Below are positions 4,118 to 26,350 of a stretch of 64,000 bases of DNA, piece after piece; within the stretch, counting starts at the first letter, position 1, and every line of letters begins with the position of its first letter. Location: positions 174 through 64,173 of the forward strand of contig JAFGPX010000084.1 in assembly GCA_016935975.1 (NCBI GenBank), given 5' to 3'. A program made the translations under genes and the position numbers. A model generated the notes under the pieces. It saw only the letters and a list, made by a program, of their open reading frames with translations. It did no database searches and was not told the DNA's origin. Origin of the DNA: Deltaproteobacteria bacterium (GTDB lineage Bacteria > Myxococcota_A > Polyangia > Fen-1088).

Positions 4118-4148
4118 CCACTGGAACACACGAGAGGAAGGGGCAACC

Positions 4149-5693: not shown

Positions 5694-5716
5694 CCAGGAG
5701 CGCGAGGAGCACAACC

Positions 5717-6883: not shown

Positions 6884-6967
6884 ACGCAAACACGCGACAG
6901 GCACGCCGCAGACGCCGAACTGGAAGTGACGCCTGGTCTGCCATCGTGCTTTCTCGACCATGATGTC

Positions 6968-9010: not shown

Positions 9011-9689
9011 GCGCTCCCGCTCCTGACACATGATGTTGAATGTACCACGGCACGGTGAGTCCCGTCCGGCGCCACCTCGAGCAGCGGGCCCGTCGCCGCC
9101 GCTTGCTTGGCCATCCGGGACAGCAGGTCGGGGTGATAGATGGAGACACAACCGAAGGTCCCGCCTGGAGAATTCTCGGGCAGATAGTAGCGATGCCGCG
9201 AGAGCATAATCGCGGCGAAGGCAGTGCCCGGTGGGACACCTCGCGGCGGCTACCCAAGAACCTGGAAATGCCCGCGGCCCGCCAAGGTGGGCTGGAAGGC
9301 GAACAAAGGCGCATCCTTGCGCCCGAGACGTTCGTTCCGTCCCGGTGATAGCTCGACCGGAGTAGCAGCACGAGTGGGTGCTAGTTCCGACGCTGCCAAG
9401 GTACGCCGTCATCGGCGTCCACCGTGGCGGCAGCGACAATAGCGCGCTCGACAGCTTCACAAGCTGCCGTAGGGCTGGCGCGGGTCCGGGATTTCGGCCG
9501 GCCTCACGTCCGAGGTGAGGATCTCGAATGAGCCGCGCCGCCACAGCGCCAGTTTCGACCGGGGCAAGCCATGATTCTTCACAAAATCACCTCCCTTCGG
9601 ACAACCTTACTATGGCAGGGGGGCTTCCCCGAGCGTAGGAGCTACTCCCAGCCATCTTGGCCATGCACAAATCAATACCGGAGCGCGAT

Positions 9690-11381: not shown

Positions 11382-11405
11382 GCTGGGCGCTCCGCAAGCC
11401 CCCGG

Positions 11406-12407
11406 TCAATCGCCGGCGAATGTCTTCGGATCTTGCAGCATCCGCCACAAGTGAGTCCTGATGCTCGCTGTGTCGACCTGGGTGACCACCAAGGCATTTC
11501 CAGCGGCATTGGGCACGAGCGGCGGGCCCTGCCCTTGCGGCGAACCGAATACGGCCGTCGGATCAGGTGCGCTGGGTTCCGCCGTGATCACGAAGGTAGA
11601 CACGCCCGCCGCGAGGACCGCCACTTGGTCGGCCGCGGTGTTGAGCTTGGACAGGTTCGGCTGCTTTCCCGCCATCCAGTCTCCGAATGGATTCCTGGGC
11701 AGATTCGCGAGATCGTCTGCCGTCACGTCGCCGCTCTGGTCGTAGCGGACGGGTACCTGGGTGTAGTGGAACTTGTGAGCGACAATCCAGTCCGCCCAGG
11801 GATCGAGATCACCGTTCGGACCGGTCATGAGGGTCTTCCCGGACGAGGACGAGCCAAGCGCCGCCACCACGGTCACACGATCGACCACGGTAGGGTCCAT
11901 GAGATAGGCATCCGCGAGATTGGTGAGCTGAGCGCCGGTCACGACGACGAGAGGGTGCCCGGGCAGATACAGCTGCCTAGAGAGATCCACGATCAACTGG
12001 GCACCCGCTGAGCGTAGCGGGACCGTGGACTCGATTCTCTGGTCGGCAGGCACCGTCAACTGCGTGCTGGCGCCCTCGGTGACATCGGGAATGTGCTCAA
12101 GGCCGCTCGCGCGCGCGGCTGTCACGAGATTGGTCCAGCCGGTCACGTTCGCGTTCTGGTCGGTCCAGTAGTTGCTCGCATCGACAACGATGCCGGCAAG
12201 GCTCAAGCTTCCGGCGTTCGCGAGTAGCACCGCGCACTCGCCGGCCCAGTTGTCGCTCCAGCCATCGTTGTCGATGATGACTGGGTTGCGATGGTCGACG
12301 GGCAACTGCCCGTACAAGTTGCGACCTGCGTCCAGGGTTTCCCCACATCCCGCCGCCGCAAGCGCCAGCCCCAGGTACAAGGCGCATCGTCGCCCGCCAG
12401 GTGGCAC
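11406..12407 (-). CDS. Lipoprotein with inosine/uridine nucleoside hydrolase-like fold
   Basis: Lipobox LAAAGC, PVIIDNDGWSDN, LVVVTGAQLTNLADAYLMDPTVVDRV. Start uncertain (GTG 12407 chosen). Confidence 0.55.
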   Translation of the reverse strand: MPPGGRRCALYLGLALAAAGCGETLDAGRNLYGQLPVDHRNPVIIDNDGWSDNWAGECAVLLANAGSLSLAGIVVDASNYWTDQNANVTGWTNLVTAARASGLEHIPDVTEGASTQLTVPADQRIESTVPLRSAGAQLIVDLSRQLYLPGHPLVVVTGAQLTNLADAYLMDPTVVDRVTVVAALGSSSSGKTLMTGPNGDLDPWADWIVAHKFHYTQVPVRYDQSGDVTADDLANLPRNPFGDWMAGKQPNLSKLNTAADQVAVLAAGVSTFVITAEPSAPDPTAVFGSPQGQGPPLVPNAAGNALVVTQVDTASIRTHLWRMLQDPKTFAGD

Positions 12408-12835
12408 GGCACGAAGGCGAGTACCCGGCTTCGCACCGGGAACAGAACACCGCAGGAAAACGGTGCCTCGGAGGCAGCCGCGGCGCCGCACACGTCGAGC
12501 GTTCGCCCAAGTCCCGTCAGCGTCTTGGCCTGCACGGCCTCCAAGCTTCCGTGCCCGTGCGGTTGCGTCGTCCTCGATTCGTTTCATCGTGGCCTTCCTG
12601 CCTTGAGGAAGCGACACATCTTTCTATACTCGGCCTTGAAACGAAGGCAAGGAGCACTGCGCGCCCATGGCCGGCGGCGCCTGTGCTGTCGGCTATGGTG
12701 GGACGGCTCTGTCCGTCTCGGCTGCGGGAGCCGCGCTGCTTCACGGATGCGCAGGACGTCCGGCACTTCGGCTCGCGGCGAGGATCCGCCCTTCTGGAGA
12801 GCCGCGCCGGAAAGAAGAGTCGGACCATTCGGTCA

Positions 12836-13345
12836 TCAGTATTCCTCCATGAATATCCCGCGCAAGGCCCAGCCGATCTGCTTGCGGACGTCTTCGACAT
12901 CAATGCCTTGCTGTTTCTTGTCCACCCAGACGTCGTAGAGCCCTTCCACCAAGGCGCCCTTTTCGGCTGACCAGTATTTGTGGCTGTTGAGCATCCTGAT
13001 CGTCTCCGGGCCGAACGCTGCGATCGCGGCGTCGGAGACGTCTAGTGGCGCCAGGGCCGTCTTGGCCAAGCCCGGAGCGCCGATGGGCGGCGTCGTTGTC
13101 CCCTGATTGGCGAGCGGCGGTGACGAGGAAGGCCTCTCCGGCAGCGCCAACCGCGGCGGCGGTAGGGACCGCTTCTTGGCCACTTTCGGTTGGGAGCCTA
13201 ACGTCGCAGCTCTTTCGGCAGACGGGTCCTCCAGCGACGGCTCGCCAGCCACCTTTGGCTCGCGGTTTCCCAACCAGAACCAACCGAGCGGAAGCAGCAA
13301 CAGCAACAACCAGAACCACCGGCCCTTTTTCCTGCGGTTGGTCAT
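12836..13345 (-). CDS. Hypothetical membrane-anchored protein
   Basis: MTNRRKKGR, then a TM helix, Pro-rich linker and small C-terminal domain; RBS AAAGGAG; ECF-like motif upstream. Confidence 0.6.
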   Translation of the reverse strand: MTNRRKKGRWFWLLLLLLPLGWFWLGNREPKVAGEPSLEDPSAERAATLGSQPKVAKKRSLPPPRLALPERPSSSPPLANQGTTTPPIGAPGLAKTALAPLDVSDAAIAAFGPETIRMLNSHKYWSAEKGALVEGLYDVWVDKKQQGIDVEDVRKQIGWALRGIFMEEY

Positions 13346-13408
13346 GGCACTCCTTTGGGTGGGGAAGACGCGTACGAGGATTCTACGCGCGGCTCCCAGA
13401 CTGGTGCA

Positions 13409-13436
13409 ATGCAACTCCGGAGGCGTTTCGATCACA
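13409..13436 (-). promoter_or_regulatory. Predicted ECF promoter TGTGATCGA-N15-GCAT (copy 1)
   Basis: Minus strand tgtgatcga aacgcctccggagtt gcat, about 64 nt upstream of ATG 13345. Confidence 0.7.
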
Positions 13437-13636
13437 GGATTTCCTGGGCTCGGGCAGCATGCGCGACGGGACTGAAGTGATGAACATGGGGGGCTCGTTG
13501 ACAGGGGATCCGTTGTCGCGCACCATGGCCCACGATGCGCCGATACGAGAGAAGGCAGTCCAGCTTTCCATGGGCATGCAACCCACGAGGGCTCGATCCG
13601 GCAACGATGGAGGTGAGGGTCCGGGATGAATGCCCC

Positions 13637-14662
13637 GTGATTTCGATTGCCTTCTTCGGTCTTGCCGTGGGCATGCTGCTTTCGGTGCTAGTGCTGTCCG
13701 CAGGCTGCAGGTGCGGACGGACCAGCTCCCATGGAACTGCAGCGCCGGTCGAGACGAGGGCGAATCTCGCAGACGACGGTCCTGGGCGCGCTTGGGGGGG
13801 CACGGCGCGAAGCTGCAAAGGACTCGCGCCGACCTGCGGGCCATCGGGCAACGATGACTGCTGCAAGAGCCTGCGGGTTCCGGGCGGGACCTTCGCGCGG
13901 AGCTACGATGGCGTGGACTTCCTGGACAAGAGCTTCCCGGCGACGGTGAGCGACTTCTACCTCGACAAATACGAGGTCACGGTGGGCCGGTTCCGGGCCT
14001 TCGTGAACGCGGGCATGGGCACGCAGAAGAACCCGCCGCGGGAGGACACGGGCGCACATCCGAAGATCGCGGGCTCTGGCTGGGACTCCGCATGGAACGC
14101 CAAGCTGCCGGCAAAAATGGACGCGCTGAAGGCCGCCCTCAAGTGCCACACGTCCTTCCAGACCTGGACGGACGCGCCGGGGAGCAACGAGAGCAAGCCG
14201 GTAAACTGCCTGGACTGGTACGCGGCATTCGCCTTCTGCGCGTGGGACGGCGGGCGTCTGGCGACCGAGGCGGAGTGGAACTACGCGGCCGCAGGAGGCA
14301 GCGAACAACGGTACTATCCCTGGTCGATCCCTCCAAGCTCCACGGCAATCGATGACAGCTACGCGGTGTACTGCGGTGGCACATGCAAGCTGCTGGACGT
14401 GGGCGCGAAGTCGCCGAAGGGCGACGGGAGGTGGGGGCAGTCCGACCTGGGCGGAAATGCTTGGGAGTGGACGCTCGACTGGGATCCCGTCCAGTACCCA
14501 ATGCCGTGCCACGACTGTGCCCATGTGAAAGCAGGCACCTACAGGGCTTTCCGGAGCGGCAGCAACGACGACATCGCCGCGACTCTCCGGTCGTCCGTTC
14601 GGCACGTCTACTACCCCGACTACCGCGGCGTCAACGGAGCCCGTTGCGCCAGGACCCCATGA
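13637..14662 (+). CDS. Formylglycine-generating enzyme (FGE/SUMF1) family protein, probable lipoprotein
   Basis: VPGGTF, FYLDKYEVTVGRF, PVNCLDW, RLATEAEWNYAAAGG, DLGGNAWEW, GARCAR; lipobox LSAGC. Confidence 0.85.
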   Translation: MISIAFFGLAVGMLLSVLVLSAGCRCGRTSSHGTAAPVETRANLADDGPGRAWGGTARSCKGLAPTCGPSGNDDCCKSLRVPGGTFARSYDGVDFLDKSFPATVSDFYLDKYEVTVGRFRAFVNAGMGTQKNPPREDTGAHPKIAGSGWDSAWNAKLPAKMDALKAALKCHTSFQTWTDAPGSNESKPVNCLDWYAAFAFCAWDGGRLATEAEWNYAAAGGSEQRYYPWSIPPSSTAIDDSYAVYCGGTCKLLDVGAKSPKGDGRWGQSDLGGNAWEWTLDWDPVQYPMPCHDCAHVKAGTYRAFRSGSNDDIAATLRSSVRHVYYPDYRGVNGARCARTP

Positions 14663-14671
14663 CTCCGCCCG

Positions 14672-15031
14672 CTACGATCCAGGGCAGATGTCCGTCTGCT
14701 TCCCCGCGAAAGGCTTCGCGACCTCGCTCACCTGCTTGCCGACCACGGTGATCGTCGCGGTGTCGTTGCTGCCCAAATGCTCCGCGGCCAACGCCGTCAG
14801 GTAGGGGACCTTCTTCGGGTCGCACTTCATGACCAGGGCTTGGACGGTATCGACGGCGAGAACGTTGCTGCCGGCCAGGATGAGGCGCATGTTCTTCGTC
14901 GAGGATTCGTAGTCGTACGTGCCGCTGTCGTCCCACACGGGCAGAGGACCGTGCTCGAGTCCCTGCAAGCCGTCCATGACCACGAAGTCGGCGGGGCGGA
15001 TGCCGTAGTAGTCGCGGATGAACGTGGATCT
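14672..15031 (-). pseudogene. C-terminal fragment of a DUF362 domain protein
   Basis: ADFVVMDGLQGLEHGP..MRLILAGSNVLAVDTVQALVMKCDPKKVPYL; the N-terminal part is absent and no plausible start was seen. Confidence 0.65.
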
Positions 15032-15120
15032 CGCGTCTCCCGGGGATCTCGATTCACCAGCAGGGTGCGTGGCGAGATCCACGGCGACCGCGCAGCGGGC
15101 GCACCGAGAGGGGTGGGGGG

Positions 15121-15186
15121 CCCGACGGGCTTTGCCCGCTCGGGGCGGGGAGGCTGGCCTCCCCGCCGTTTCGCGGAACGCGAAAC
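15121..15186. repeat. Three consecutive hairpins (REP-like or structured element)
   Basis: cccgacgggc-ttt-gcccgctcggg; ggcggggaggc-tg-gcctccccgcc; gtttcgcg-gaa-cgcgaaac. Confidence 0.55.
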
Positions 15187-15210
15187 CCAGGTTCAATCGT
15201 CGCCGCTTGG

Positions 15211-16323
15211 CTAGTCTGCCAGTGGGAAGTACGCGTTCGCCTGCCGTGCCATCGAGTCCTCACCCGACGAGGTGGCATGGCAGCTGTCGGACATGACCTC
15301 GCCCTTGGTGCTGTCGAGCTTCCACTGACCGAGGTAGACCACATCCGTGATGCCCTCCGCGGCGATCTTCTTGGCCTCGTCGTCCGTCCATTTGGCGCCG
15401 CCCGTGCCAGCCAGGGTACACTCGTGTCCGGCCTCGTACACCGGCTGCCCCGACAGGTAGATCTTCGTGCCCGGGTTGACGTGAGCCTTCGCCGCCGTGA
15501 TCATCCTCCTCACCTCGTCATCGGTCGCCCTGCTGCTGAAGATGCAGATCATGACCTGGACCCCTTTGACCACGTCCTTCCCTCCGATCGACTGCATCTT
15601 GCGGTCGAAGAGCTGCCAAGAACTGCTATTCGAGTCTGTCCAGTTCTGGACGACCATGGCACCCGTACCATAGCTATCCGAGTTCCACATCACCCCGTTG
15701 CCAACCCGCTTGTTTCCATTGCCGATGTTGTTGGCCATCGAGCATCCGGTATAGGCAATCGCGTTCTTGCCAAAGCCGGTCGTCGGGGGCGTGGTGCCCC
15801 CCGTGCTGGTCGTGCCACCTGTGGCCGCGCCGCCGGTGCCGGTGGTGCGACCACCTGTCCCGGCACGGCCCGTCCCCGTCGTACGACCGCCCGTGCCGCT
15901 CGCTCCAGCGCCTCCAGTTTCACCGCCCGAGCCCTCCACTCCGCCACTGCCCGAGTCTCCGCCGGAGCCAGTCCTGCCTCCAACCATCGTACGACCGCCC
16001 GTACCAGACCGGCCGCCTCTGCCGGTGGTGCCGCCCGACTCCGTGGCGCCGCCGCTGCTGGTCGTGCCGCCCGAGCTGGTCGTGCCGCCCGAGCTGGTCG
16101 TGCCGCCCGTGCTCGTCGTGCCGCCCGTGCTCGTCGTGCCGCCGCTGCTCGTCGTGCCGCCGCTGCTGGTCGTGCCACCTGTATTCTCGTTGCCGCCGCT
16201 GCCGCCGGACTGACCACCCGTGCCAATCACGCTTCCGCCCGTCGATTGCTCACACCCGACGAGCATGAAGGCGGCCAAGCCGATCGGCAGACAGACCCGG
16301 CTGATGATGCGCGCATGGTTCAT
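15211..16323 (-). CDS. Gly-linker lipoprotein with SGNH-like hydrolase domain
   Basis: RBS AGGAGG, lipobox LVGC, SGGTTS repeats, AYTGCSM (block I-like) and DSCH (DxxH) near the C-terminus. Confidence 0.7.
   Translation of the reverse strand: MNHARIISRVCLPIGLAAFMLVGCEQSTGGSVIGTGGQSGGSGGNENTGGTTSSGGTTSSGGTTSTGGTTSTGGTTSSGGTTSSGGTTSSGGATESGGTTGRGGRSGTGGRTMVGGRTGSGGDSGSGGVEGSGGETGGAGASGTGGRTTGTGRAGTGGRTTGTGGAATGGTTSTGGTTPPTTGFGKNAIAYTGCSMANNIGNGNKRVGNGVMWNSDSYGTGAMVVQNWTDSNSSSWQLFDRKMQSIGGKDVVKGVQVMICIFSSRATDDEVRRMITAAKAHVNPGTKIYLSGQPVYEAGHECTLAGTGGAKWTDDEAKKIAAEGITDVVYLGQWKLDSTKGEVMSDSCHATSSGEDSMARQANAYFPLAD
16048..16179 (-). repeat. 18-bp tandem repeats encoding (S/T)GGTTS
   Basis: About 7 near-identical units (gccgcccgagctggtcgt and variants). 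Confidence 0.85.
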
Positions 16324-16376
16324 TGGAAATCTCCTCCTGTTGGACTGACGCCCGCGCGGACGCCCATATCCCATTC

Positions 16377-16404
16377 ATGCGGGCACAGGGCCAAATCGAT
16401 CACA
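16377..16404 (-). promoter_or_regulatory. Predicted ECF promoter TGTGATCGA-N15-GCAT (copy 2)
   Basis: tgtgatcga tttggccctgtgccc gcat, about 54 nt upstream of ATG 16323. Confidence 0.7.
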
Positions 16405-16516
16405 CGGTCGTCCTGTGTGAGACGAACCGAGCCCCTTGACAGACTGCTCTTCCTGGGGACCGCAGCACGTCCGCCGCAACTAGGCGACAACGGGCCCGCG
16501 CCCGGCCCCGGCCATG

Positions 16517-17803
16517 CTACGGGAGCGTATAACGCTTCAAGACTTCCCACGCCACGTCGGGAATGGCGAAGGATGCGTAGTTGGCGCAATGCGTGCCGTC
16601 CTGCACCGTGCAGAGGATCGTCTCCACACCCTCCGCGCACTCTGGATACGCCTTGCACGATGCGTTCTCCGGCATCGGTGCCGGAGTACCCGTGCATTGG
16701 TTGATCTGCCCCCATTTCGTGAAGTTCGGTTCCGCCCCGCTGTAGTTCACCATCTGGTCTTTGGTAGCGCGGAACTGTATCTCCGTGATGGGTCGCGAAG
16801 GGTTGCAGGGGGTGGCGACAGTATCGAAATCGACCGGGGCCACCGCCGCGATCACGTCGGCCGCATCGCACGCCAGCTTGTAGGACATCGCGCCGCCGTT
16901 CGAGCAGCCCGTGGCGTAAACGCGTTTGCCGTCGATGCAGGCATCGGTCTTGAGCGCTGCGATGACCGCCTTCACGAAAGCCACATCGTCGACCTTGTCG
17001 GTCGTTGCCGGCGGGCAGCAGCCGCCGCCGTTCCACGACTTCCCGACCCCATCCCCGTAGATTACGAGGATTCCCTCCTTGTCCGCGAGCTTGTCGAAGC
17101 GGGACATCGACTTCTCCATGGCGCCGTCGCCACCCATCCCGTGGAAATCGAAAACGACAGGGAAGGGTGTCTTGCCGGTATAGCTGGTAGGCGCATAGAC
17201 GGTGTAGGTGCGGTCGAGGGTACCCACCGTGATCGTCTTTTTCGTGGATCCGGCCTTGAGCGTGGCGCCTGCCGGGCACTCCCCGCTGCTGCCGCCGCTG
17301 CCGCCGGAAGCTCCGCCCGTGCCCACGCCACCCATCCCCGTCTGTCCGCCGTCGCTCCCGGTCTGCCCGCCCTCGCCCGCGGCCCCGCTGGAACCGCCGC
17401 GACCGGTCGCGCCGCCGCGTCCGCTCGCACCGCCGCGTCCGGTCATGCCACCGCGTCCGGTCACGCCGCCGCGTCCGCTCGCACCACCAGCGGCCATGCC
17501 GCCGCTTCCAATGCGCCCGCCCGTAGACACGCCCCCAGCGCTTTCACCACCACTGCCCACGCCGCCGCTGCCGAGGTCTCCGCCCGAGCCACTCGTGCCT
17601 CCGGAGTCGATTCGCGTGCTGCTCGTCCCTCCCGTGCTGGTTGTGCCCCCGCTGCTCGTGGTTCCGCCCGAGCTGGTTGCGCCACCCGACCCAGATTCCG
17701 CTCCCCCGGATCCACTGGGAGTCCCTGCGGGGTTGGAGGTACACGCGCTCGCCAGAAAGGCAAGCGCCACGAAGAGCAATCTCCTCTGCGGGGCAAAATG
17801 CAT
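16517..17803 (-). CDS. CE1-like / PHB-depolymerase-family esterase lipoprotein with Gly-rich linker
   Basis: Lipobox LASAC, GRGG repeats, PVVFDFHG, SWNGGGCC, DDVAFV, RVYATGCSNGG, C-terminal His. Confidence 0.85.
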   Translation of the reverse strand: MHFAPQRRLLFVALAFLASACTSNPAGTPSGSGGAESGSGGATSSGGTTSSGGTTSTGGTSSTRIDSGGTSGSGGDLGSGGVGSGGESAGGVSTGGRIGSGGMAAGGASGRGGVTGRGGMTGRGGASGRGGATGRGGSSGAAGEGGQTGSDGGQTGMGGVGTGGASGGSGGSSGECPAGATLKAGSTKKTITVGTLDRTYTVYAPTSYTGKTPFPVVFDFHGMGGDGAMEKSMSRFDKLADKEGILVIYGDGVGKSWNGGGCCPPATTDKVDDVAFVKAVIAALKTDACIDGKRVYATGCSNGGAMSYKLACDAADVIAAVAPVDFDTVATPCNPSRPITEIQFRATKDQMVNYSGAEPNFTKWGQINQCTGTPAPMPENASCKAYPECAEGVETILCTVQDGTHCANYASFAIPDVAWEVLKRYTLP

Positions 17804-17960
17804 GGTTGTCTCCTTGGTTGCGAGCCGTCACAGCGCGACCCGGGTCCGACGCCTAGGCGCTGGCCGCCAAACAGCGCCATCAGCGCCGACGCGAACGTCG
17901 CCTTCTCGTGCGCAACGGGTCACTTGGACGCGCTCTCTGCGGGTAGAATCCTGCCCTGAG

Positions 17961-17988
17961 ATGCGCGCAGAAACCTGGTTCGATCACA
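17961..17988 (-). promoter_or_regulatory. Predicted ECF promoter TGTGATCGA-N15-GCAT (copy 3)
   Basis: tgtgatcga accaggtttctgcgc gcat, in the intergenic gap about 158 nt upstream of ATG 17803. Confidence 0.7.
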
Positions 17989-17994
17989 CGATCT

Positions 17995-18864
17995 TCACTG
18001 CGCGATGCAGTTGTCCTGCATGATCTTCCAGATCGCGTCGGCGATGGCCCGTCCCCCGGCATCCGACGCCTGGATCTTGCTCACTGGGTCGGTGTATTCC
18101 GGGTGCCCCGCCCAGATCGGCTGCAGATCGAGGAAGTGACACGCCACTTTGTTCCTATTCGTGAGATCCGTGCATGCCTGTTGCACGAGTGGCCGCAGAG
18201 CGGGAACCCCGTAGATCGTGGGCAGCTCGGGATTGAGGAAGTAGACGATGTGCTCGACCGTTCCGTCTCTCTCCACCTGGTCCAGGAACAGCTCGAAATC
18301 GCTCGCCTCCTTGGCTACCGCGGCGTTCACGTCTCCGCCGTTGATGCCGGCCCAGGTGGTTTCCCAGGTCCCCCCATTCATGATCACCACCTTGAGCTTG
18401 GTGGCACCTGACTGCAGTGACCGGTATTGCTCGGTGATCGCCGCCATGCTGGCGGCTGCGGCGGCGGCCACCCGGTACTCCTCGTTCGGTCCGATGGCCC
18501 GCGCCGCACGTGCGTAGTCCTGGACCGTCGTGTACTGGGAGCCAGGAATGGTCACCCACGAATCGCCTATCCAACCGACCTCGTTCGCCTTCACCTGACC
18601 CTTCACGCAAACGCTGCCACTCTCCGAGTCGATGGCGCCCTCGTCCACTCCCAGAATCGCGTCCTTCCCATCCGCACCGAGAGCCACGTCAGCCGCGTCC
18701 GCGCCAGCCGGCACGTCCTCTCCGTCCGCAGCGACGGCCGCGTCCCCTGCATCCGCCAACGCACGCGCTCTGCCCAGGCGGATCACCTTGCCGTCGCAGG
18801 CAGCGATGGCGACCAAGACCGCCATCGACCAAGCGGTATGCGCGACAAGTGCCGACCTAGCCAT
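17995..18864 (-). CDS. SGNH/GDSL-fold lipoprotein with degenerate catalytic motifs
   Basis: Lipobox IAAC, WIGDSW, VIMNGGTWE, FLDLQPIW..KIQAS (Gln at the expected His position). Confidence 0.7.
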   Translation of the reverse strand: MARSALVAHTAWSMAVLVAIAACDGKVIRLGRARALADAGDAAVAADGEDVPAGADAADVALGADGKDAILGVDEGAIDSESGSVCVKGQVKANEVGWIGDSWVTIPGSQYTTVQDYARAARAIGPNEEYRVAAAAAASMAAITEQYRSLQSGATKLKVVIMNGGTWETTWAGINGGDVNAAVAKEASDFELFLDQVERDGTVEHIVYFLNPELPTIYGVPALRPLVQQACTDLTNRNKVACHFLDLQPIWAGHPEYTDPVSKIQASDAGGRAIADAIWKIMQDNCIAQ

Positions 18865-18870
18865 CGCCTA

Positions 18871-18880
18871 ATGGTACCAT
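18871..18880. promoter_or_regulatory. Palindromic extended -10 (ATGGTACCAT), putative bidirectional leaderless promoter
   Basis: Reads TGgTACCAT on both strands, 7 nt before ATG 18888 (+) and 6 nt before ATG 18864 (-). The 23-bp gap has no RBS. Confidence 0.6.
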
Positions 18881-18887
18881 CCTCGCG

Positions 18888-20060
18888 ATGCTCCCGGGCA
18901 GTGCCCTCTTGGTTGCGTTCCTGTCGCCCCTCGTCTTGGGCGCGGCCGCAAGCTCGTCTCCCGCGCCGATCACGAGCGTCCGTCTCGATGTGCGGGCCGC
19001 GCCCGGCTGCACCTCGCGCGGCGATCTGGTGACACGCGTCACCTCGCGCTCCTCGCGTATCCGGTTCGTCGACGACGGCGCGTTCGTGGCGCAGGCGACA
19101 TTTGCAGCACCACGGCCCGGAAGCGTCACCGCGGAGATCACGCTGACCGCCGCCAACCGCAAGCCGTCGCGGCGCAGAGTCGTCGCCCGTTCCTGCGCCG
19201 AAGCGGCCGACGCCATCGCCCTCATCATCGCCGTCACCCTGGATCCGACGTTGCCACGGAACGCCGTGGCCAGGCCCAGCGACGACCAGGACACCGCTGC
19301 GGAGAGCGAAGCGGCTTGGCAAACGCCATCGCAGTCCGCAGAAGACATGGCGAGCCCCTTCGATTCCGCTCCCGCGCCCGGCCCGAAGCCGGCAGTCAAG
19401 CCAGTCAGGCAAGCGGTCGCCACGCCGGCAAAGGCCGCGACGGCTCTCGCCAAGCCCAGCGCGATAGCTCCTGCAAAGGCCGCCACGCCGGCTCCCCTGG
19501 AAACCGCGGCGCCGGAATCGCCCGCCACCTCCGCCCCGCCGCGACATGTCTTGAGCGCGCACGTGGCAGGGCAACTGCTGTTCGGCCCCGCTCCGAGCGT
19601 CATGCCCGGCGTCGCAGTCCAGATAATGGCCGGAATGGATCGCGAAGGCCTGTGGTCACCGGCAATCTTCCTCGGCGCGACACACGTGTGGCGAGCGGGC
19701 CTGCGCGAGACGGGCGGGACTGCGTCCTTCACGCTCGATGCGGGAAGTCTCGACGCATGTCCGCTGCGCGCGCGTCTGTCTTTCCTCGAGGCGCGCCCGT
19801 GCGCGTCCGTGGTGGTTGGCCGGCTCGTCGCGGGCGGCGATGACACCGACGATCCCGCAACCGTGTCGCGCCCCTTCGCGTCCGCCGGCGGCGCTGCCAT
19901 CCTGACCGCCGGCCTGGGCGCCATCGTCGAACTGCACCTGCGCCTCGCCGCGGGCGTGACGCTGGTACGCGACTCGTTCGAATTCAGCCCGATCGTCTTC
20001 CACCGCGCCGGGCTCTTCACGACCTCGGCCAGCCTGGGCGCGGGCGCACGTTGGCCTTGA
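18888..20060 (+). CDS. Exported protein with N-terminal Cys-pair domain, Pro/Ala linker and probable C-terminal beta-barrel
   Basis: Signal peptide; PGCTSR..ARSCAEAADAIALII; alternating hydrophobic strands ending LGAGARWP. Confidence 0.6.
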   Translation: MLPGSALLVAFLSPLVLGAAASSSPAPITSVRLDVRAAPGCTSRGDLVTRVTSRSSRIRFVDDGAFVAQATFAAPRPGSVTAEITLTAANRKPSRRRVVARSCAEAADAIALIIAVTLDPTLPRNAVARPSDDQDTAAESEAAWQTPSQSAEDMASPFDSAPAPGPKPAVKPVRQAVATPAKAATALAKPSAIAPAKAATPAPLETAAPESPATSAPPRHVLSAHVAGQLLFGPAPSVMPGVAVQIMAGMDREGLWSPAIFLGATHVWRAGLRETGGTASFTLDAGSLDACPLRARLSFLEARPCASVVVGRLVAGGDDTDDPATVSRPFASAGGAAILTAGLGAIVELHLRLAAGVTLVRDSFEFSPIVFHRAGLFTTSASLGAGARWP

Positions 20061-20097
20061 CCGACCGGGCCCTGGCCGCGGCACCACAGAGCGACGG

Positions 20098-20841
20098 CTA
20101 CGGCCGCACGAGACCGGCGATCCGCGACACCCTATCGGCCAACACGGTTCCGCGGTGATCCGCCACGAATCGCTCGGCCAGCCTCCGCGCCTCGGCATTT
20201 CGCCCGAGCTTGACCAGTGCCTCGACCTTGAGCGCCGCCGCTTCGGGAAGGAAGCTGCCGGCGGGGTACCTTTCCTGATAGCGGCGCAGGAGATCCAACG
20301 CGCGCCCGCTGCTGCCATCTGCAATCGCCACACGCGCGGCATCCAGTAGCGCGATCTGTTCTCGCAAGACGCCGACGGCCGGGGCAACGCGGCCTCGCGG
20401 GGCCGGGACGGACGCGCCCGCGGACGGCTCGGCCGCCCGGACATTCCCCTGCGCCGGCGAGCCGGGCAGCGGTGGTGCCACGGCTGGCGCCATCGTCTGG
20501 GAAGCGGCCGGACGTGGCTCCGTGGGCGAATCCTTCCAGGACTGGACGCCGATGATCGTCCCGGCGACGGCCAAGCCGAGCACGCCGGCAGCAATCCACG
20601 GCCACACGGCCGTCGCGCCCACGCCCGCGGTCGCCTTGGACGCCACCGCCTCGGCGGCCAGCTCTTTCGCGACGGCCGCGACTCCGAGCGCGGCAGCAGA
20701 CGCGCCGATGGCCTGGGCCATACGCGCGGACATCTCGGGTGACGGCCGTTCATTCGCTGCAGCCCCGAGCAGCCGCCGTTCGAAGTCGGTCGCGCCTTCT
20801 GCGAGCAACGGTTCTGGCAGATCGTCAAGTGGGCGGTTCAT
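20098..20841 (-). CDS. Putative anti-sigma factor (single TM, periplasmic TPR-like domain)
   Basis: Overlaps the sigma stop by ATGA; TM WPWIAAGVLGLAVAGTIIGV; C-terminal helical repeat ALDLLRRYQERYPAGSFLPEA. Confidence 0.7.
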   Translation of the reverse strand: MNRPLDDLPEPLLAEGATDFERRLLGAAANERPSPEMSARMAQAIGASAAALGVAAVAKELAAEAVASKATAGVGATAVWPWIAAGVLGLAVAGTIIGVQSWKDSPTEPRPAASQTMAPAVAPPLPGSPAQGNVRAAEPSAGASVPAPRGRVAPAVGVLREQIALLDAARVAIADGSSGRALDLLRRYQERYPAGSFLPEAAALKVEALVKLGRNAEARRLAERFVADHRGTVLADRVSRIAGLVRP

Positions 20842-21404
20842 GCCTCCCCTTCCTTCCGCAGACTTCTTTCGATGCGTGCCGCTGCGGCACGGAATTGCTC
20901 GCGCGCGCGGCGCAGTCGAGACGCCACACTGCCAAGTGGGATCTCGAGCAGCGCCGCGATCTCCGGCGAAGACAGGCCCTCTAGCTCATAGAGGACGAAT
21001 ACCTCTGCCAACTCGGGGTTCACCCGGGCCAGCGCCAGGTCGCAAAGCTGGATGTCGGCCCGCCGTTCATCCGCGTCACGGAGGCCGGACAGGCGTTTGT
21101 CCATGTCTTCGTCCAGCTCCCAGCGCACGACCTTGCGGCTGAGCGTGTGCGCCATGCGCAGCGCGGTTTGGATCAGAAAGGCGCGTTCGCTTTCCGGGCG
21201 AATGTCGGGCAATCGACCGGCGGCGAGTAGAAACGTCTCCTGCGTCGCATCCGCGGCGGCATCGGGAGCCAAGCCGCGGCGACGCAACGCGCGCCAAACG
21301 ATCGCGTGGTGGTCATTGAACATCCGCTCCAAACGGGTTCGGTCCACCAACCTTGGATCGAGTGGTGGCTCCTCAGGGGATGCCGTTTTCAGGCTATGAA
21401 CCAT
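20838..21404 (-). CDS. ECF RNA polymerase sigma factor
   Basis: Region 2 VWRALRRRG..AADATQETFL; region 4 VFVLYELEGLSSPEIAALLEIPLGSVASRLRRAR; about 188 aa. Confidence 0.93.
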   Translation of the reverse strand: MVHSLKTASPEEPPLDPRLVDRTRLERMFNDHHAIVWRALRRRGLAPDAAADATQETFLLAAGRLPDIRPESERAFLIQTALRMAHTLSRKVVRWELDEDMDKRLSGLRDADERRADIQLCDLALARVNPELAEVFVLYELEGLSSPEIAALLEIPLGSVASRLRRAREQFRAAAARIERSLRKEGEA

Positions 21405-21437
21405 CCGCCTGTCCCGAGAATGACTCTGCATAACGAT

Positions 21438-21464
21438 ATGCGTGCAGTTCGCTCGTTCGATCAC
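21438..21464 (-). promoter_or_regulatory. Predicted ECF autoregulatory promoter GTGATCGA-N15-GCAT (copy 4)
   Basis: gtgatcga acgagcgaactgcac gcat, about 34 nt upstream of the sigma ATG. Confidence 0.72.
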
Positions 21465-21542
21465 CAAAAGCATAGCACTGCTAGAGCTGCTCGCGCCAAG
21501 TGCGGCTAGGCGTTGCAGGTTTGGGTCGTCCGAACCTCGTCT

Positions 21543-21555
21543 CGTAACGGTTACG
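21543..21555. promoter_or_regulatory. Palindrome CGTAAC-G-GTTACG, possible repressor operator upstream of the CE15-GH2 cluster
   Basis: AT-richer inverted repeat in the divergent intergenic region; only one copy seen. Confidence 0.3.
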
Positions 21556-21702
21556 TCACGGTTCGAGAACCGTGGCGGGCTGGACTCCCAAGGCAGTCGC
21601 GAGCATTGCTCGACAGTATGGGTAGTTCGCAGTTCGCGGGAAGTTCGTGGCCTGGCTCGGGCGGCCGGCTCTTCCGTGATCGCTCGTGAATCGGGAGTCA
21701 GC

Positions 21703-23403
21703 ATGGCAAATACACTGCTTCGTTCATTGATGGTCATTGGTCTAGGCGCCCTCCTTGTCTCATCGTGTTCAAATGGCGCGTCCACCCAAGAGATCACAGG
21801 GGGCGCGACGGGCGCGGGCGGTATCTCGGGCGGAGCGGGCGCCGATTCTGGTGGCACCAGCGGCTCGGCCGGGTCTGGCGGCTCGGCCACCACCGGTGGT
21901 GCGTCGGGGAGCGGCGGAACCAGCGCGAGCGGCGGCGCGTCCAGCAGCGGCGGGTCGGCCGGGAGCGGCGGTGCCGGTGTAGCCGGCGGCTCCTCGGGCC
22001 AGGGCGGCGCGTCCGGCACTGGCGGCGTTCGCCCAAGCGGCGGCGCGTCCGCAAGAGGCGGCGCGTCCGACGCAGGTGGCGCTCGGCCTAGTGGCGGCGC
22101 GTCCGGCAGAGGCGGCGCAACCGGCACCGGCGGCGGCCAGCCGGCAGGTGGCTCGGTCGGCGCAGGCGGCACCAATGTGGGAGACGCCGGAACGGGAGGG
22201 GGCACCGGTGACGGCGGCGCCGACGGCGGCTCGATCGGCAGAGGTGGCTCGACCGGCGCGGGCGGGGACATGCCCCTGGTCTATGACGTGGAGAACACCG
22301 GCGCCGACTGCCAAGTACCGACAAGCTTTCCGGCGTTCAGCGCGCTCAAGGCCGTCGCGAACCTGCCCGATCCATTCTTGATGGAAAGCGGCACACGCAT
22401 CTCCAGCCGCAGCGAATGGGCCTGTCGGCGCGCCGAGATCAGCGCCCAAATCCAACACTGGGAGCTCGGGACGAAGCCAGCCCCTCCGGCTGACAGCGAC
22501 GTTACGGCCACCTACTCGGGTGGCAAGCTCACGGTAGTCGTCAAGGTGGGCTCGCAGTCGGTCACGCTGACCAGCACCATCACCACGCCCAGCGGCACCG
22601 GCCCCTTCCCGGTCATGATCAAGATGGACGGGGCCGGGGTTCCGGTTTCCGGAATCGCGACCATGAGCTTCACCAGCTCCGCGCTGGCGGCCCAGATGCC
22701 CACCCGGGGCACGGGAACGTTCTGGAACCTCTTCCCGGACAAGACCGCGGGCGCGTACGCCGGCTGGTCGTGGGGCGTCAGCCGCCTCATCGACGGCCTT
22801 TTCGAGACAGCCGACCAGAACAAGATCGACGTGAAGCGTATCGGGGTGACCGGATGCTCGTACGCGGGCAAGATGGCGCTCTACGCCGGGGCCTTCGACG
22901 AGCGCATTGCGCTTACCATCCCCGAAGAGTCCGGCGGCGGCGGGGAGGCGGCCTGGCGCGTGTCATCGACGCTGAAGGATGCGGAAGACCTGGATCACGC
23001 TCAGGGCACGGGCTGGTATTCCGCGAATCTGAACCAATTCAAGAACGCGGATGCTCCGAAGCTGCCCTTCGACCAGCACGAGCTTGCGGCCATGGTGGCG
23101 CCCAGGGCACTCCTGACGATTGGCAACAACGGCATTTCCTATCTGGCAAGCGAGGCTGGCTACGTTTCGATGAAGGCTGCCACCGAGGTCTACAAGGCGC
23201 TCGGGGTCCCAGACAGGATCGGCTACTCCATAAACGGCAACAACGGCCACTGTGCATTCCCGTCCTCCCAGGCGCCGGACGTACAGGCTTTCGTAGACAA
23301 GTTCCTCCTTGGAAAGACCGCAAATACGGCCGTCGCAAAGAGCCCCACGTACAGCAGTGACCTGAAGAAATGGATTAGCTGGGACACGCCGACTCTCAAG
23401 TAG
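21703..23403 (+). CDS. CE15 glucuronoyl esterase lipoprotein with Gly-rich linker
   Basis: Lipobox LVSSC, LPDPF, WACRRAEI, WSWGVSRLID, GVTGCSYAGK, AFDERIALT, ESGGGG, LPFDQHEL, GHCAFP. Confidence 0.9.
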   Translation: MANTLLRSLMVIGLGALLVSSCSNGASTQEITGGATGAGGISGGAGADSGGTSGSAGSGGSATTGGASGSGGTSASGGASSSGGSAGSGGAGVAGGSSGQGGASGTGGVRPSGGASARGGASDAGGARPSGGASGRGGATGTGGGQPAGGSVGAGGTNVGDAGTGGGTGDGGADGGSIGRGGSTGAGGDMPLVYDVENTGADCQVPTSFPAFSALKAVANLPDPFLMESGTRISSRSEWACRRAEISAQIQHWELGTKPAPPADSDVTATYSGGKLTVVVKVGSQSVTLTSTITTPSGTGPFPVMIKMDGAGVPVSGIATMSFTSSALAAQMPTRGTGTFWNLFPDKTAGAYAGWSWGVSRLIDGLFETADQNKIDVKRIGVTGCSYAGKMALYAGAFDERIALTIPEESGGGGEAAWRVSSTLKDAEDLDHAQGTGWYSANLNQFKNADAPKLPFDQHELAAMVAPRALLTIGNNGISYLASEAGYVSMKAATEVYKALGVPDRIGYSINGNNGHCAFPSSQAPDVQAFVDKFLLGKTANTAVAKSPTYSSDLKKWISWDTPTLK

Positions 23404-23464
23404 CTCGCCGCCCGCGAGATGCGCGCGCGAGCTGAACGATGACAACAGAACGACCTAAGGACGA

Positions 23465-26350
23465 ATGCCAATGAAGAAGCAAGTCATTCGAGCGGGGCTT
23501 CGCTTGTCGCTTTCAATCGCGGTGCTACTGGCGGGCTGCGGCCAGGAGAGTCCGGCAGGTAGTAGCACCGGCGTCGGTGGAGGCCGGGGCGGCAGCGGCG
23601 GGGCAGCGGGTTCGGGCGGTGGCGGTCCGAGCGCCGGTGGAAGTGCGGGTAGCGGCAGCACGAGCAACTCCGGCGGCGCGGGCCAAGGAGGAGCCACGAC
23701 CAGCAGTGGCTCTGGCGGCACGGGGCAAGGCGGCGGTACGACGAGCGCCGGTGGGGGGCCAGACTCGGGCGGCGCGAGTGCGCGTGGAGGGGCCACGGCT
23801 CGGGGTGGGGCTGGCGGTGGCGGTGCGTCGGGACGGGGAGGCAGCGGCGGCGCGGGCGGCCGAAGCGGTAGTGGCGGAAGCGGTAGCGGCGGGAGCGGCG
23901 CCGGTGGTGCGCAGGGCGGTGCCGGCGGCGCCAGCAGCGCCGGCGGCACGAGCGGGCGCGACGCCTCGCCCGACGGGGCCACCCCGCCGCCGAGCGCGCT
24001 CGGGGCGCGGGCCTACAACGGCCGGCGCGGCGAGGAATTCAACGCCGGCTGGAAGTTCAACCGGGGCGACGTCTCGGGTGCCGAGGCGACATCCTTCAAC
24101 GACTCCTCGTGGAAGTCGCTCGACGTGCCCCACGACTGGAGCATCGAGCTGGCCTTCAACTCGAGCTCGCCCGCGGGCTCGGGCGGCGGCTTCCTGGATG
24201 GCGGCGTCGGCTGGTATCGAAAGAGGTTCACCCTCGATTCGGGGGCCGCGGGCCAGCGCATCTTCTTGGCCTTCGACGGCGTGTACATGAACAGCCAGGT
24301 TTGGCTCAACGGCTCGCCGCTGGGCACCCGCCCGTACGGCTATTCCACCTTCGAGTACGAAATCACCGACAAGGTGAAGACCGACGGCAGCGAGAACGTC
24401 GTCGCGGTCAAGGTCAACAACAACCAACCCAATACCCGCTGGTACTCGGGCAGCGGCATCTACCGCAACGTCTGGCTGACCAAGCTCAATCCCGTTCACA
24501 TCCCGCAGAGCGGCGTGTTCGTGACCACGCCCACGGTCAGCGGATCGTCGGCAACGGTTGCGGTCGCCACCGAGGTCCAGAACCAGTCGAGCGCCGGCGC
24601 TTCGGTGACCGCGACCACGACCATCTTGGCCGACGACGGCAGCCCGGTGACCTCCAACGACAGCTCGGCCAGCAGCGTCGCGGCCGGGGGCAAGGCCACG
24701 ATTCAACAGAGCCTGACCGTCAGCTCGCCGCAGCGCTGGTCGCCAAGCTCGCCCTATCTGTATCAGGTCAAGGTCGAGCTGAAGGTGGATGGCGCCACGG
24801 TCGATACCTACCTCGCGCCGCTCGGGATTCGCAACTTCGCGTTCAGCGGCAGCAGCGGGTTCTCCCTCAACGGCCAGAACATGAAGCTGCGCGGAGTGTG
24901 CCTGCACCACGACCTCGGCGCCCTGGGCGCCGCCATCAACTACCGGGCCATCGAGCGCCAGGTGGACATCATGAAGAAGATGGGTGTGAATGCCATTCGC
25001 ACGTCGCATAACCCGCCCGCTCCCGAGTTCCTCGAGATCGCCGACCGGATCGGCATCATGGTGATGGACGAGGCCTTCGACACCTGGACGCAGACCAAGA
25101 ACGCGAACGACTACGGGAAGTACTTCAACACGTGGGCGCAGCAGGACATCCAGGACATGGTCAAGCGGGATCGCAACCATCCCAGCATCATCATGTACAG
25201 CATCGGCAACGAGGTCGGCGGCGCCACCACGGCCACCGCGCAGAAGCTCAAGGATTGGGTCCTGGCCCTGGACAAGACACGCGCGATAACCTGGGCCTCG
25301 AACAAGATGGGCGGCCCGCACGTCTCGGAGGGCGACGACCGCAACGTCGCCAAGCTGCTGGACGTGGTGGGCTACAACTACGCGCCCTACGCCGGCGACT
25401 ACGACGCAGACCATTCCGCCAACCCGAACTGGGTCATCCTCGGTAGCGAGACCGTCTCGGCCTTCAGCAGTCGCGGCATCTACCACACGCCGGCCAACCA
25501 GATCAGGTACTCGAACGACGGCACTTCCGACAAACAGTGCTCGTCCTACGACAACGAGACGGCCAGGTACGGACAGACGGCCCACGAGTCGTATACCTAC
25601 GACAACAGCCGCTCGTACGTCGCCGGATCCTTCGTTTGGACGGGCTTCGACTACATCGGCGAGCCGACGCCCAACGGCTGGCCGGCCAAGAGCTCGTACT
25701 ACGGCATCGTGGACACGGCGGGATTCCCCAAGGACATCTACTACTTCTACCAGAGCCGCTGGACCAGCACGCCGACGATGGTGCACCTTCTGCCGCACTG
25801 GAACTGGTCGAGCGGCACCAACGTCACGGTCTTCGCCTATGGCAACTGCGACAGCGTCGAGCTGTTCCTCAACGACAAGTCGCAGGGGTCGAAGACCCTG
25901 AGCGGCGGGGCGTTGCACTTCGAATGGAGCGTGCCCTGGGCGTCGGGGACGCTGCGGGCCGAATGCAAGAAGGGCGGTACCATCGCCGCCACCGACGAGG
26001 TCAAGACCGCCGGCAGCGCGGCCAGGGTGGCCCTAACCCCGGATCGAAGCACCATTCGCGCCGACGGCAAGGACATGGTCTTCATCACCGCCGATATCCT
26101 GGACGGCAGCGGGGTCCTCGTGCCCAACGGCAACAACTCGATCACGTTCTCGGTCACCGGCTCCGGCCAATTGGTGGGCGTCGACAACGGAGACGCCACC
26201 GACACCTCGTCGTACAAGGGCGGAAGCCGCAAGGCCTTCAGCGGCAAGGCCCTGGCCATGGTGCGCTCGACCAAGACCGCGGGCGCCATCACCATCAAGG
26301 CGACCTCCAGCGGGCTGTCCTCCGACCCCATCACGGTGACGGCCCAGTAG
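23465..26350 (+). CDS. GH2 beta-galactosidase lipoprotein with Gly-rich linker
   Basis: Lipobox LAGC, VPHDWSIE, FDGVYMNS, RWYSGSGIYRNV, GVCLHHDLG, IRTSHNPP, RDRNHPS, SIGNE, WTGFDYIGEPTP. Confidence 0.95.
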   Translation: MPMKKQVIRAGLRLSLSIAVLLAGCGQESPAGSSTGVGGGRGGSGGAAGSGGGGPSAGGSAGSGSTSNSGGAGQGGATTSSGSGGTGQGGGTTSAGGGPDSGGASARGGATARGGAGGGGASGRGGSGGAGGRSGSGGSGSGGSGAGGAQGGAGGASSAGGTSGRDASPDGATPPPSALGARAYNGRRGEEFNAGWKFNRGDVSGAEATSFNDSSWKSLDVPHDWSIELAFNSSSPAGSGGGFLDGGVGWYRKRFTLDSGAAGQRIFLAFDGVYMNSQVWLNGSPLGTRPYGYSTFEYEITDKVKTDGSENVVAVKVNNNQPNTRWYSGSGIYRNVWLTKLNPVHIPQSGVFVTTPTVSGSSATVAVATEVQNQSSAGASVTATTTILADDGSPVTSNDSSASSVAAGGKATIQQSLTVSSPQRWSPSSPYLYQVKVELKVDGATVDTYLAPLGIRNFAFSGSSGFSLNGQNMKLRGVCLHHDLGALGAAINYRAIERQVDIMKKMGVNAIRTSHNPPAPEFLEIADRIGIMVMDEAFDTWTQTKNANDYGKYFNTWAQQDIQDMVKRDRNHPSIIMYSIGNEVGGATTATAQKLKDWVLALDKTRAITWASNKMGGPHVSEGDDRNVAKLLDVVGYNYAPYAGDYDADHSANPNWVILGSETVSAFSSRGIYHTPANQIRYSNDGTSDKQCSSYDNETARYGQTAHESYTYDNSRSYVAGSFVWTGFDYIGEPTPNGWPAKSSYYGIVDTAGFPKDIYYFYQSRWTSTPTMVHLLPHWNWSSGTNVTVFAYGNCDSVELFLNDKSQGSKTLSGGALHFEWSVPWASGTLRAECKKGGTIAATDEVKTAGSAARVALTPDRSTIRADGKDMVFITADILDGSGVLVPNGNNSITFSVTGSGQLVGVDNGDATDTSSYKGGSRKAFSGKALAMVRSTKTAGAITIKATSSGLSSDPITVTAQ

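Follow-up and report, generated by a model that had tools for sequence, protein, structure and literature searches.

Genes and motif copies at the locus

The stretch analysed here (the window) covers 64,000 nt of contig C142 in the Polyangia assembly G000, which comprises 5.39 Mb in 341 contigs with a GC content of 67.7%. The subject is a gene for a sigma factor of the extracytoplasmic function (ECF) type and a bipartite element, GTGATCGA-N15-GCAT, of which four copies lie close to that gene. In a first-pass annotation, made from the letters of the window, the four copies were taken to be the cognate promoters of this sigma factor and to define its regulon. This reading is supported by comparative genomics, namely by dyad counts upstream of related sigma genes, by the recurrence of the target families and by the covariation of the -10 half with the sigma clade. 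The sigma operon, the putative promoters (with their weight-matrix scores) and the genes downstream of them are as follows:

12836..13345, minus strand: small membrane-anchored protein of 169 aa (P0007); no known family matched
13409..13435, minus strand: putative promoter P1, GTGATCGA-N15-GCAT; 63 nt from GCAT to the ATG at 13345; 29.0 bits
15211..16323, minus strand: lipoprotein of 370 aa (P0003); Gly/Ser/Thr linker, and an SGNH-like domain at the C-terminus (GCS...DSCH seen by eye)
16377..16403, minus strand: putative promoter P2, GTGATCGA-N15-GCAT; 53 nt from GCAT to the ATG at 16323; 27.7 bits
16517..17803, minus strand: putative lipoprotein esterase of 428 aa (P0004) with a Gly/Ser/Thr-rich linker and an alpha/beta-hydrolase domain
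17961..17987, minus strand: putative promoter P3, 157 nt before the esterase ATG at 17803 and 8 nt past the stop of the preceding gene; 29.5 bits
20098..20841, minus strand: single-pass anti-sigma candidate of 247 aa (P0002), overlapping the sigma stop codon by 4 nt
20838..21404, minus strand: ECF sigma factor of 188 aa (P0001); Sigma70_r4_2, Sigma70_ECF, r2 and TIGR02937
21438..21464, minus strand: putative promoter P4, 33 nt before the sigma ATG at 21404; 32.4 bits, the top site of the genome

The assignment of P0001 to the ECF sigma factors, already made in the first-pass annotation, was borne out. The protein scores 54.2 bits against the sigma70-ECF model TIGR02937 (cutoff 42.9), and Pfam gave Sigma70_r4_2 (1.8e-13, 50.4 bits) together with Sigma70_r2 at 21.6 bits, just below the cutoff of 24. 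With 188 aa and domains 2 and 4 only, it has the composition of the ECF (group 4) branch of the sigma-70 family. Its best relatives in the PDB were SigE/SigH-type chains (E no better than 1.6e-9); the label RpoE-ChrR was absent from all 13 matches.

Occurrence of the motif in the window and the genome

The pattern GTGATCGA-N15-GCAT was found exactly four times in the window, always on the minus strand, where 0.02 matches were expected from 100 dinucleotide shuffles, none of which reached four; the motif is far beyond chance. The exact spacing claimed for the four copies was thereby confirmed. Their start coordinates were also correct, whereas the ends given for three of them (13436, 16404 and 17988) were one base too long, the T of TGTGATCGA having been counted in; it is these three copies, P1–P3, that read TGTGATCGA. 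It was further observed that the four 15-nt spacers share no sequence, and that each copy is intergenic, in sense orientation and 33–157 nt upstream of an ATG on the same strand, in agreement with the first description. P4 is also intergenic, because the divergent open reading frame (ORF) listed from 21442 actually begins with a lipoprotein signal peptide near 21700. This copy has TTTT in front of it, at 21467–21470, and transcription from it would start at ~21429–21432.

In the whole assembly, the exact pattern was found five times; four of the matches are the window copies, none of them more than 8 kb from the sigma gene. The fifth (contig C258) falls within an ORF on the same strand whose coding score is positive. 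When the spacer was changed, two matches were obtained genome-wide with N14 and none with N16. A weight matrix was made only from sites in other genomes and then run over G000; the window's four sites topped the whole genome at 32.4, 29.5, 29.0 and 27.7 bits. Seven genomic sites reached at least 18 bits, as against 0, 1 and 1 in three shuffled genomes, and the next-best score inside the window was 15.1 bits. By both the exact count and the matrix scan, the motif is rare genome-wide and clustered near the sigma gene; a genome scan was among the checks proposed in the first-pass annotation, and the reading passed it.

Two other high-scoring genomic sites lie upstream of recognizable genes. The site at C45:6638 (minus strand, 23.8 bits) reads TGATCGA-N15-GCAA and is found ~35 nt upstream of a gene for a lipoprotein that has a signal peptide and a Gly/Ser/Thr-rich linker, as in the window targets, and an esterase-like domain; this protein is probably a fifth member of the regulon, outside the cluster. 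The site at C148:18730 (24.0 bits) reads TGATCAAA...CCAT (TTTCGGTGATCAAA-N-CCAT) and is located 41 nt before a paralogous sigma gene (18796–19359, 45% identity); it has the -35 half in common with the window sites and a different -10 half. The same contig carries, at ~4000–20100, three sigma/anti-sigma pairs of the wider family. A count across the genus, covering 13 genomes, gave 71 matches, and the reversed control pattern gave 4; this was not used as evidence of enrichment, since the reversed pattern includes CTAG, a tetramer that tends to be avoided in bacteria.

The clustering of four copies in 8 kb might suggest chance matches, or the relics of a local duplication or of a mobile repeat. 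The likelihood of such an origin is practically negligible: the expectation per window is 0.02, neither the spacers nor the flanks resemble one another, different families are represented among the genes downstream and the motif precedes homologous genes in other genomes.

Several other readings of the sites were rejected. No sigma-70-type consensus was found overlapping the four sites. TGTGA could be taken as CRP-like; inspection by eye found no TCACA half-site at the CRP distance in P1–P3. A riboswitch or other leader RNA in the 157-nt esterase leader was rejected because Rfam gave no match at gathering score over 11000–24000 and the length of the leader is not conserved, varying from 10 to 231 nt among relatives.

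Conservation of the motif upstream of related sigma genes

The sigma protein was searched for in 41 genomes (40 relatives and G000), and matches at E 1e-20 or better were found in 11 of the 12 other genomes of the same genus, often with several paralogues each. A scan of genome contigs with the sigma sequence gave 14 loci at 61–77% identity and 3 at ~52%, all of them in metagenome-assembled genomes (MAGs) of Polyangia/Myxococcota type. All pairs of a 5-mer and a 4-mer at any gap were then counted in 240-nt regions preceding 30 sigma genes; L010–L014 and L020, which are six distant paralogues, were excluded. The top dyad was TGATC-N17-GCAT, present in 20 of the 30 regions, as compared with a best of 3 in 20 shuffles. 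Motif discovery upstream of orthologous sigma genes, another check put forward in the first-pass annotation, hence returned the window's own element.

Among the 10 regions without the exact dyad, L036 and L037 have both halves one base closer, six keep the -35 half as TTTTCGTGATCGATT and have GCC(C/T)TA as the -10 half, one reads TGATCAAAA...GACAT and one has nothing. A TGATC element was found 4–88 nt before the assigned start in 33 of the 37 sigma genes listed. When 38 sites from loci L021–L034 were compared, positions that the pattern had not forced were also conserved, namely TTT at -6 to -4 (three bases upstream of TGATC), GA(A/T) after TGATC, and GCAT with a preceding pyrimidine and a following A. 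The motif conserved among the sites thus extends further than first described, and can be written as ~TTTnnnTGATCGAW-N14-YGCATA.

These data bear on the possibility that a DNA-binding repressor or activator uses the motif as its operator and that the motif is not a promoter. The palindromes GATC and TCGA lie within TGATCGA and TTGATCAA occurs in some relatives, which would be compatible with an operator. However, the two halves are unlike and the motif as a whole is not palindromic, its orientation matches the downstream gene in every window copy, and its spacing is fixed at the ECF -35/-10 distance, as the genome-wide counts at N14 and N16 indicate. The element moreover accompanies ECF sigma genes in 33 of 37 loci, and no regulator gene is conserved in the locus besides the sigma and anti-sigma genes. 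An operator is on these grounds considered highly improbable.

A maximum-likelihood tree of 36 sigma sequences placed the GCCYTA variants (6 rows) and the CCAT variants (3 rows) each in one well-supported clade. The -10 labels required 6 changes on this tree compared with a shuffled mean of 15.2, and none of 200 shuffles was as low; the test overstates the case, in that related rows share labels by descent, and it shows consistency rather than independent events. As judged from the upstream sequences, the -35 half is constant across the sigma clades and the -10 half varies clade by clade. The residues that separate the GCAT and GCCYTA sigma clades (T57A, H86R, Q170E and others) could not be tied to -10 contacts.

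It is conceivable that the sites are real ECF-type promoters read mainly by a paralogous sigma factor of the Polyangia family, with the adjacent sigma gene being a target and its product not the reader. The assembly does hold paralogues at 41–45% identity, including the C148 gene with its TTTCGGTGATCAAA-N-CCAT element, and related genomes contain 2–4 paralogues with a common -35 half. Nevertheless, the GCAT-type -10 goes with the sigma clade to which the adjacent gene belongs, and variant -10 types go with other clades; this assembly has only one sigma factor of the GCAT clades, and all four sites lie within 8 kb of its gene. Reading by a paralogue is judged improbable.

One paralogous sigma clade (~57–62% identity; L004, L005 and L025:18680–18780) has promoters of TGATCAG/TGATCAC type on both strands of a divergent intergenic region. 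The sigma gene is served by one of these promoters, and a gene for a GH2 glycoside-hydrolase lipoprotein by the other.

Genes downstream of the motif

The protein encoded downstream of P3, P0004, is nearest to PHA-depolymerase type 1 catalytic domains (NF050058, 3.1e-37), with 128.5 bits against a cutoff of 150. Its other scores also stayed below the cutoffs (TIGR01840, 45.3 against 107.85; Pfam Esterase_PHB, 21.1 against 23), and its serine motif is GCSNGG. By sequence, P0004 appears to be an alpha/beta hydrolase related to the PHB/PHA-depolymerase esterase family. P0003, downstream of P2, had no match in Pfam or NCBIfam. SGNH proteins are recognized by a Ser in block I and by Asp-x-x-His in block V. 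The C-terminal 190 residues of P0003 gave Atlas TM values of 0.78–0.88 to SGNH-type or CBM2-linked clusters, and of 0.66–0.88 over SGNH-named and unnamed clusters together, all under the bar and to be taken as a lead only. The esterase and SGNH-like labels first given to these two proteins thus stand as leads, backed by below-cutoff matches to hidden Markov models and to the Atlas.

The recurrence of the motif before the same target families, expected if the regulon is real, was found in 14 Polyangia MAG loci. In the 38 sites from these loci, 14 precede the orthologous sigma gene and one a second sigma copy, while seven precede homologues of the esterase P0004, in 7 of the 14 loci. Homologues of P0004 with the motif upstream also occur in the same-genus loci L002, L008 and L015. 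Six sites precede homologues of P0003; these represent four genes (L022, L028, L029 and L033), two of which have tandem sites. Single sites precede a homologue of the FGE-sulfatase-domain protein encoded at 13535–14662 in the window, a P0005-like paralogue, an Abhydrolase_1 protein and a GH2-like lipoprotein, and two precede other lipoproteins. The tandem copies before the SGNH-like homologue are 116–119 nt apart (L029:6450/6569 and L033:4334/4450).

The sigma factor and its putative anti-sigma factor

The gene overlapping the end of the sigma gene is kept beside it in all 17 genome-contig loci. Its product, P0002, begins with 50 conserved residues and has one transmembrane helix, a variable linker rich in Pro and, at the C-terminus, a TPR-like domain that is again conserved. 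No match was found between P0002 and the Pfam anti-sigma domains, including FecR, zf-HC2 and cupin, and only weak TPR/YfiO matches (E 0.005 or worse) were obtained.

P0002 is nevertheless predicted to bind the sigma factor. A predicted complex of the sigma factor with residues 1–66 of P0002 scored 0.84, compared with 0.23 for the best of three controls, though likeness to solved ECF/anti-sigma complexes may contribute to this score. The contacts involve both sigma domains, with the partner placed between domains 2 and 4; three runs have at least 73% of the contacts in common, and the predicted local distance difference test (pLDDT) value of the partner is at least 71. Of 80 solved complexes, 58 reached the mark used for such scores, as did 2 of 110 mismatched pairs; these counts are only a rough guide here, as own alignments were used.

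A conserved outer-membrane barrel protein and its neighbour

Two further genes lie between the anti-sigma gene and P3:

17995..18864, minus strand: SGNH-like lipoprotein of 289 aa (P0005), a conserved neighbour of the module with an SGNH-like fold
18888..20060, plus strand: predicted outer-membrane protein of 390 aa (P0009), between the anti-sigma and P0005 genes and convergent with the sigma operon

The first-pass annotation had implied that the sigma operon continues past the anti-sigma gene. This was not upheld: the operon consists of the sigma and anti-sigma genes only, and the next ORF on the minus strand (18857–20020) is a shadow frame. Its translation is rich in Arg, Ala and Ser, and wherever a locus has both frames, the overlapping plus-strand one, which encodes P0009, shows the better conservation (e.g., 4.7e-101 against 5.8e-51 in L025).

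P0009 carries a signal peptide and, behind it, an alpha/beta domain in its N-terminal part, a disordered linker of 85 residues that is rich in Pro, and a C-terminal barrel that is predicted to be 8-stranded (mean pLDDT of the model 76). The barrel matches OmpA (9fzc_A, E 4.2e-6, TM by target 0.60), OmpX (1qj9, TM 0.66), Ail and OmpW. Its gene was found beside the sigma/anti-sigma pair in 15 of the 17 genome-contig loci, with another gene order in the three most distant, and accompanies the pair at 54% identity or more in 11 of 13 same-genus loci (L002–L009 and L015–L019). Metagenomic relatives at E 0.001 or better numbered 276, and the best 120 of these had no Pfam family and no name beyond 'hypothetical protein'.

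The P0009 gene starts 23 nt from the divergent P0005 gene at 18864. P0005 keeps GDSW, and the His of block V is replaced, by SKIQ in the window and by DGIQ in most of 10 aligned orthologues; because of this replacement, the protein may be catalytically dead. No motif was found upstream of P0009 or P0005 in the matrix scans of the genome and the window, and for this reason sensor or accessory roles would fit the two proteins better than membership of the regulon output.

Proposed regulation

It is very probable that the four copies are the cognate, autoregulated promoters of the sigma factor encoded at 20838–21404, and that they serve a small regulon of exported esterase-like proteins. TGATCGA, together with the upstream T-tract in the sigma gene's own promoter, would be the -35 element read by sigma domain 4, and (C/T)GCAT(A), 17 nt past TGATC, the -10 element read by domain 2, with transcription starting ~6–9 nt past GCAT. 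The co-transcribed single-pass anti-sigma factor would hold the sigma factor at the inner membrane. Once released, the sigma factor would raise its own expression via P4 and turn on a small, mostly local set of genes for exported proteins. These would comprise the PHB-depolymerase/CE1-like esterase lipoprotein (P3), the SGNH-like lipoprotein (P2) and the small membrane protein (P1), and probably also the second esterase lipoprotein, on C45. The signal may be an esterified polymer, sensed via the TPR-like domain in the periplasm and the conserved barrel protein of the outer membrane.

Several observations weigh against this interpretation. The target promoters P1–P3 do not have the upstream TTT block that is present in the sigma gene's own promoter and in most sites of the relatives. 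The halves TGATCGA and GCAT also depart from general ECF modules, whose commonest signatures are AAC in the -35 and CGT in the -10. Because G000 holds paralogous sigma factors with near-identical -35 halves (C148), another sigma factor could read the sites. The only homologue of P0007 in related loci (L022) shows no upstream motif. In the relatives, gene starts are approximate, having been assigned by simple ORF scoring; two of the 38 sites (L024) are ambiguous, one of them probably serving an esterase homologue 420 nt away, and another two (L027) face no ORF of at least 80 aa. Among the sequencing runs listed as containing the stretch, none is RNA. The study that supplied the best-matching DNA run also includes two metatranscriptome runs, and these contain next to none of the stretch's sequence words, from which no conclusion about expression follows. 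As regards the L027 copies, at 13324 and 13418 on the minus strand, both point into the 3' end of a lipoprotein gene and could give an antisense or small transcript.

A wider and rather doubtful proposal is that this is an undescribed ECF family, confined to uncultured Polyangia, and that it forms a trans-envelope sensor of four components. These would be the sigma factor, the single-pass anti-sigma factor with its periplasmic TPR-like domain, an OmpA-like 8-stranded barrel with a periplasmic N-domain on a long disordered tether, and the His-less SGNH-fold lipoprotein acting as a ligand-binding pseudo-esterase. Such a sensor would detect extracellular esterified polymer and, in response, induce esterases at the cell surface, and paralogues in the same genome with a common -35 would be insulated only by their -10 halves.

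Comparison with known ECF systems

The experimentally supported promoter consensus of the ECF11 (RpoE-ChrR) group is TGATCC-N16-CGTA (PMC5507510). It has the same -35 core, TGATC, at the same distance from the -10 tetramer as in TGATC-N17-GCAT; however, the -10 tetramer is CGTA there and GCAT in all four sites here. ChrR is a zinc-binding anti-sigma factor with a cupin domain, whereas P0002 has no zinc-finger or cupin match, and oxidative-stress genes are controlled in ECF11 as opposed to exported hydrolases in the regulon described here. Membership of ECF11 was rejected because the -10 half, the type of anti-sigma factor and the sigma sequence are all different.

The general ECF pattern, as outlined in PMC7826278, consists of autoregulation, a co-encoded anti-sigma factor and a group-specific bipartite promoter. 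A small two-domain sigma factor, a co-transcribed membrane anti-sigma factor, a conserved promoter at its own gene and a small regulon of neighbouring genes are common to such modules and to the window (PMC7826278). The differences are that P0002 is without a Pfam anti-sigma match and that the close relatives are all uncultured Polyangia MAGs. The main text of the same paper names no Myxococcota ECF group with this motif.

Control of carbohydrate-active enzyme genes by ECF sigma/anti-sigma pairs has been described for Bacteroides, Cytophaga hutchinsonii and Clostridium thermocellum (PMC10766802). There, a membrane anti-sigma factor with an extracytoplasmic sensing domain releases the sigma factor, leading to exported polymer-degrading enzymes, which is what is proposed here (PMC10766802). 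In those organisms, several paralogous pairs per genome each have an enzyme set of their own, and in the present family one clade precedes GH2 lipoproteins. Unlike those systems, the window shows no detected SusC/TonB-dependent transducer and no carbohydrate-binding module on P0002, and the lineage is Myxococcota.

An outer-membrane beta-barrel is genetically coupled to a sigma/anti-sigma pair, as here, in FecI-FecR-FecA and in SigX-CfrX-OprF (ECF102), according to PMC7826278. FecA is a 22-stranded TonB-dependent transducer, in contrast to the small OmpA/OmpX-like barrel with an N-terminal periplasmic domain predicted here. FecI/FecR/FecA-type signalling was rejected, given that P0002 has no FecR match and the barrel is modelled as 8-stranded.

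A literature search on ECF sigma factors with TGATC promoters returned only RpoE/ChrR-type or unrelated work. For Polyangia ECF sigma factors, only the MiST database came up, nothing specific was found for Sorangium anti-sigma/esterase, and the top matches for GTGATCGA itself looked like primers or constructs. These results do not show that the motif is unpublished.

Significance

The analysis provides a concrete predicted promoter (TTTnnnTGATCGAW-N14-YGCATA) and a small putative regulon for an ECF clade known only from uncultured Polyangia MAGs, organisms in which genetics cannot be used to study regulation. A sigma/anti-sigma pair is connected with exported esterases and, in the case of paralogues, with a GH2 glycosidase, whereby the control of polymer-degrading enzymes by such pairs would be extended to Myxococcota. 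The promoter and sigma factor could serve together as an orthogonal expression part, and the paralogues with a common -35 and differing -10 offer a natural set for learning how -10 recognition alone insulates related ECF sigma factors. The conserved, uncharacterized barrel protein P0009 is a candidate signalling component. The ECF switch itself is familiar in kind; what could make the system non-routine are the barrel protein, the SGNH lipoprotein without its His and the paralogues set apart by their -10 half alone.

Other features of the stretch

Divergent from the sigma gene lies a lipoprotein gene with a CE15 glucuronyl-esterase domain (21700–23403, plus strand; GCE_fung, 6.7e-74), which is not preceded by the motif; a CE15 gene beside the sigma gene was not found in L021–L037. 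A second -35-like sequence, GTGATCG at ~21677 on the plus strand, was rejected as the promoter of the CE15 gene because its GCAT, 19 nt after TGATC, overlaps the ATG of that gene.

For an ORF of 174 aa on the minus strand (14672–15196), the match to DUF362 is confined to the C-terminal part of that family, and the N-terminus of the ORF is poor. In the window, this ORF and the FGE-domain gene (13535–14662, plus strand) converge, whereas in L027, L029 and L033 its homologue lies on the same strand as the FGE-domain gene and precedes it; this arrangement suggests a local inversion or gene decay.

With a codon model built from the long ORFs of the genome, the genes at 12000–22000 were found to have lower coding log-odds per residue than most genes elsewhere in the window. 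Nearly all exported proteins in this region carry long low-complexity linkers rich in Gly, Ser and Thr, which may partly explain the low coding scores.

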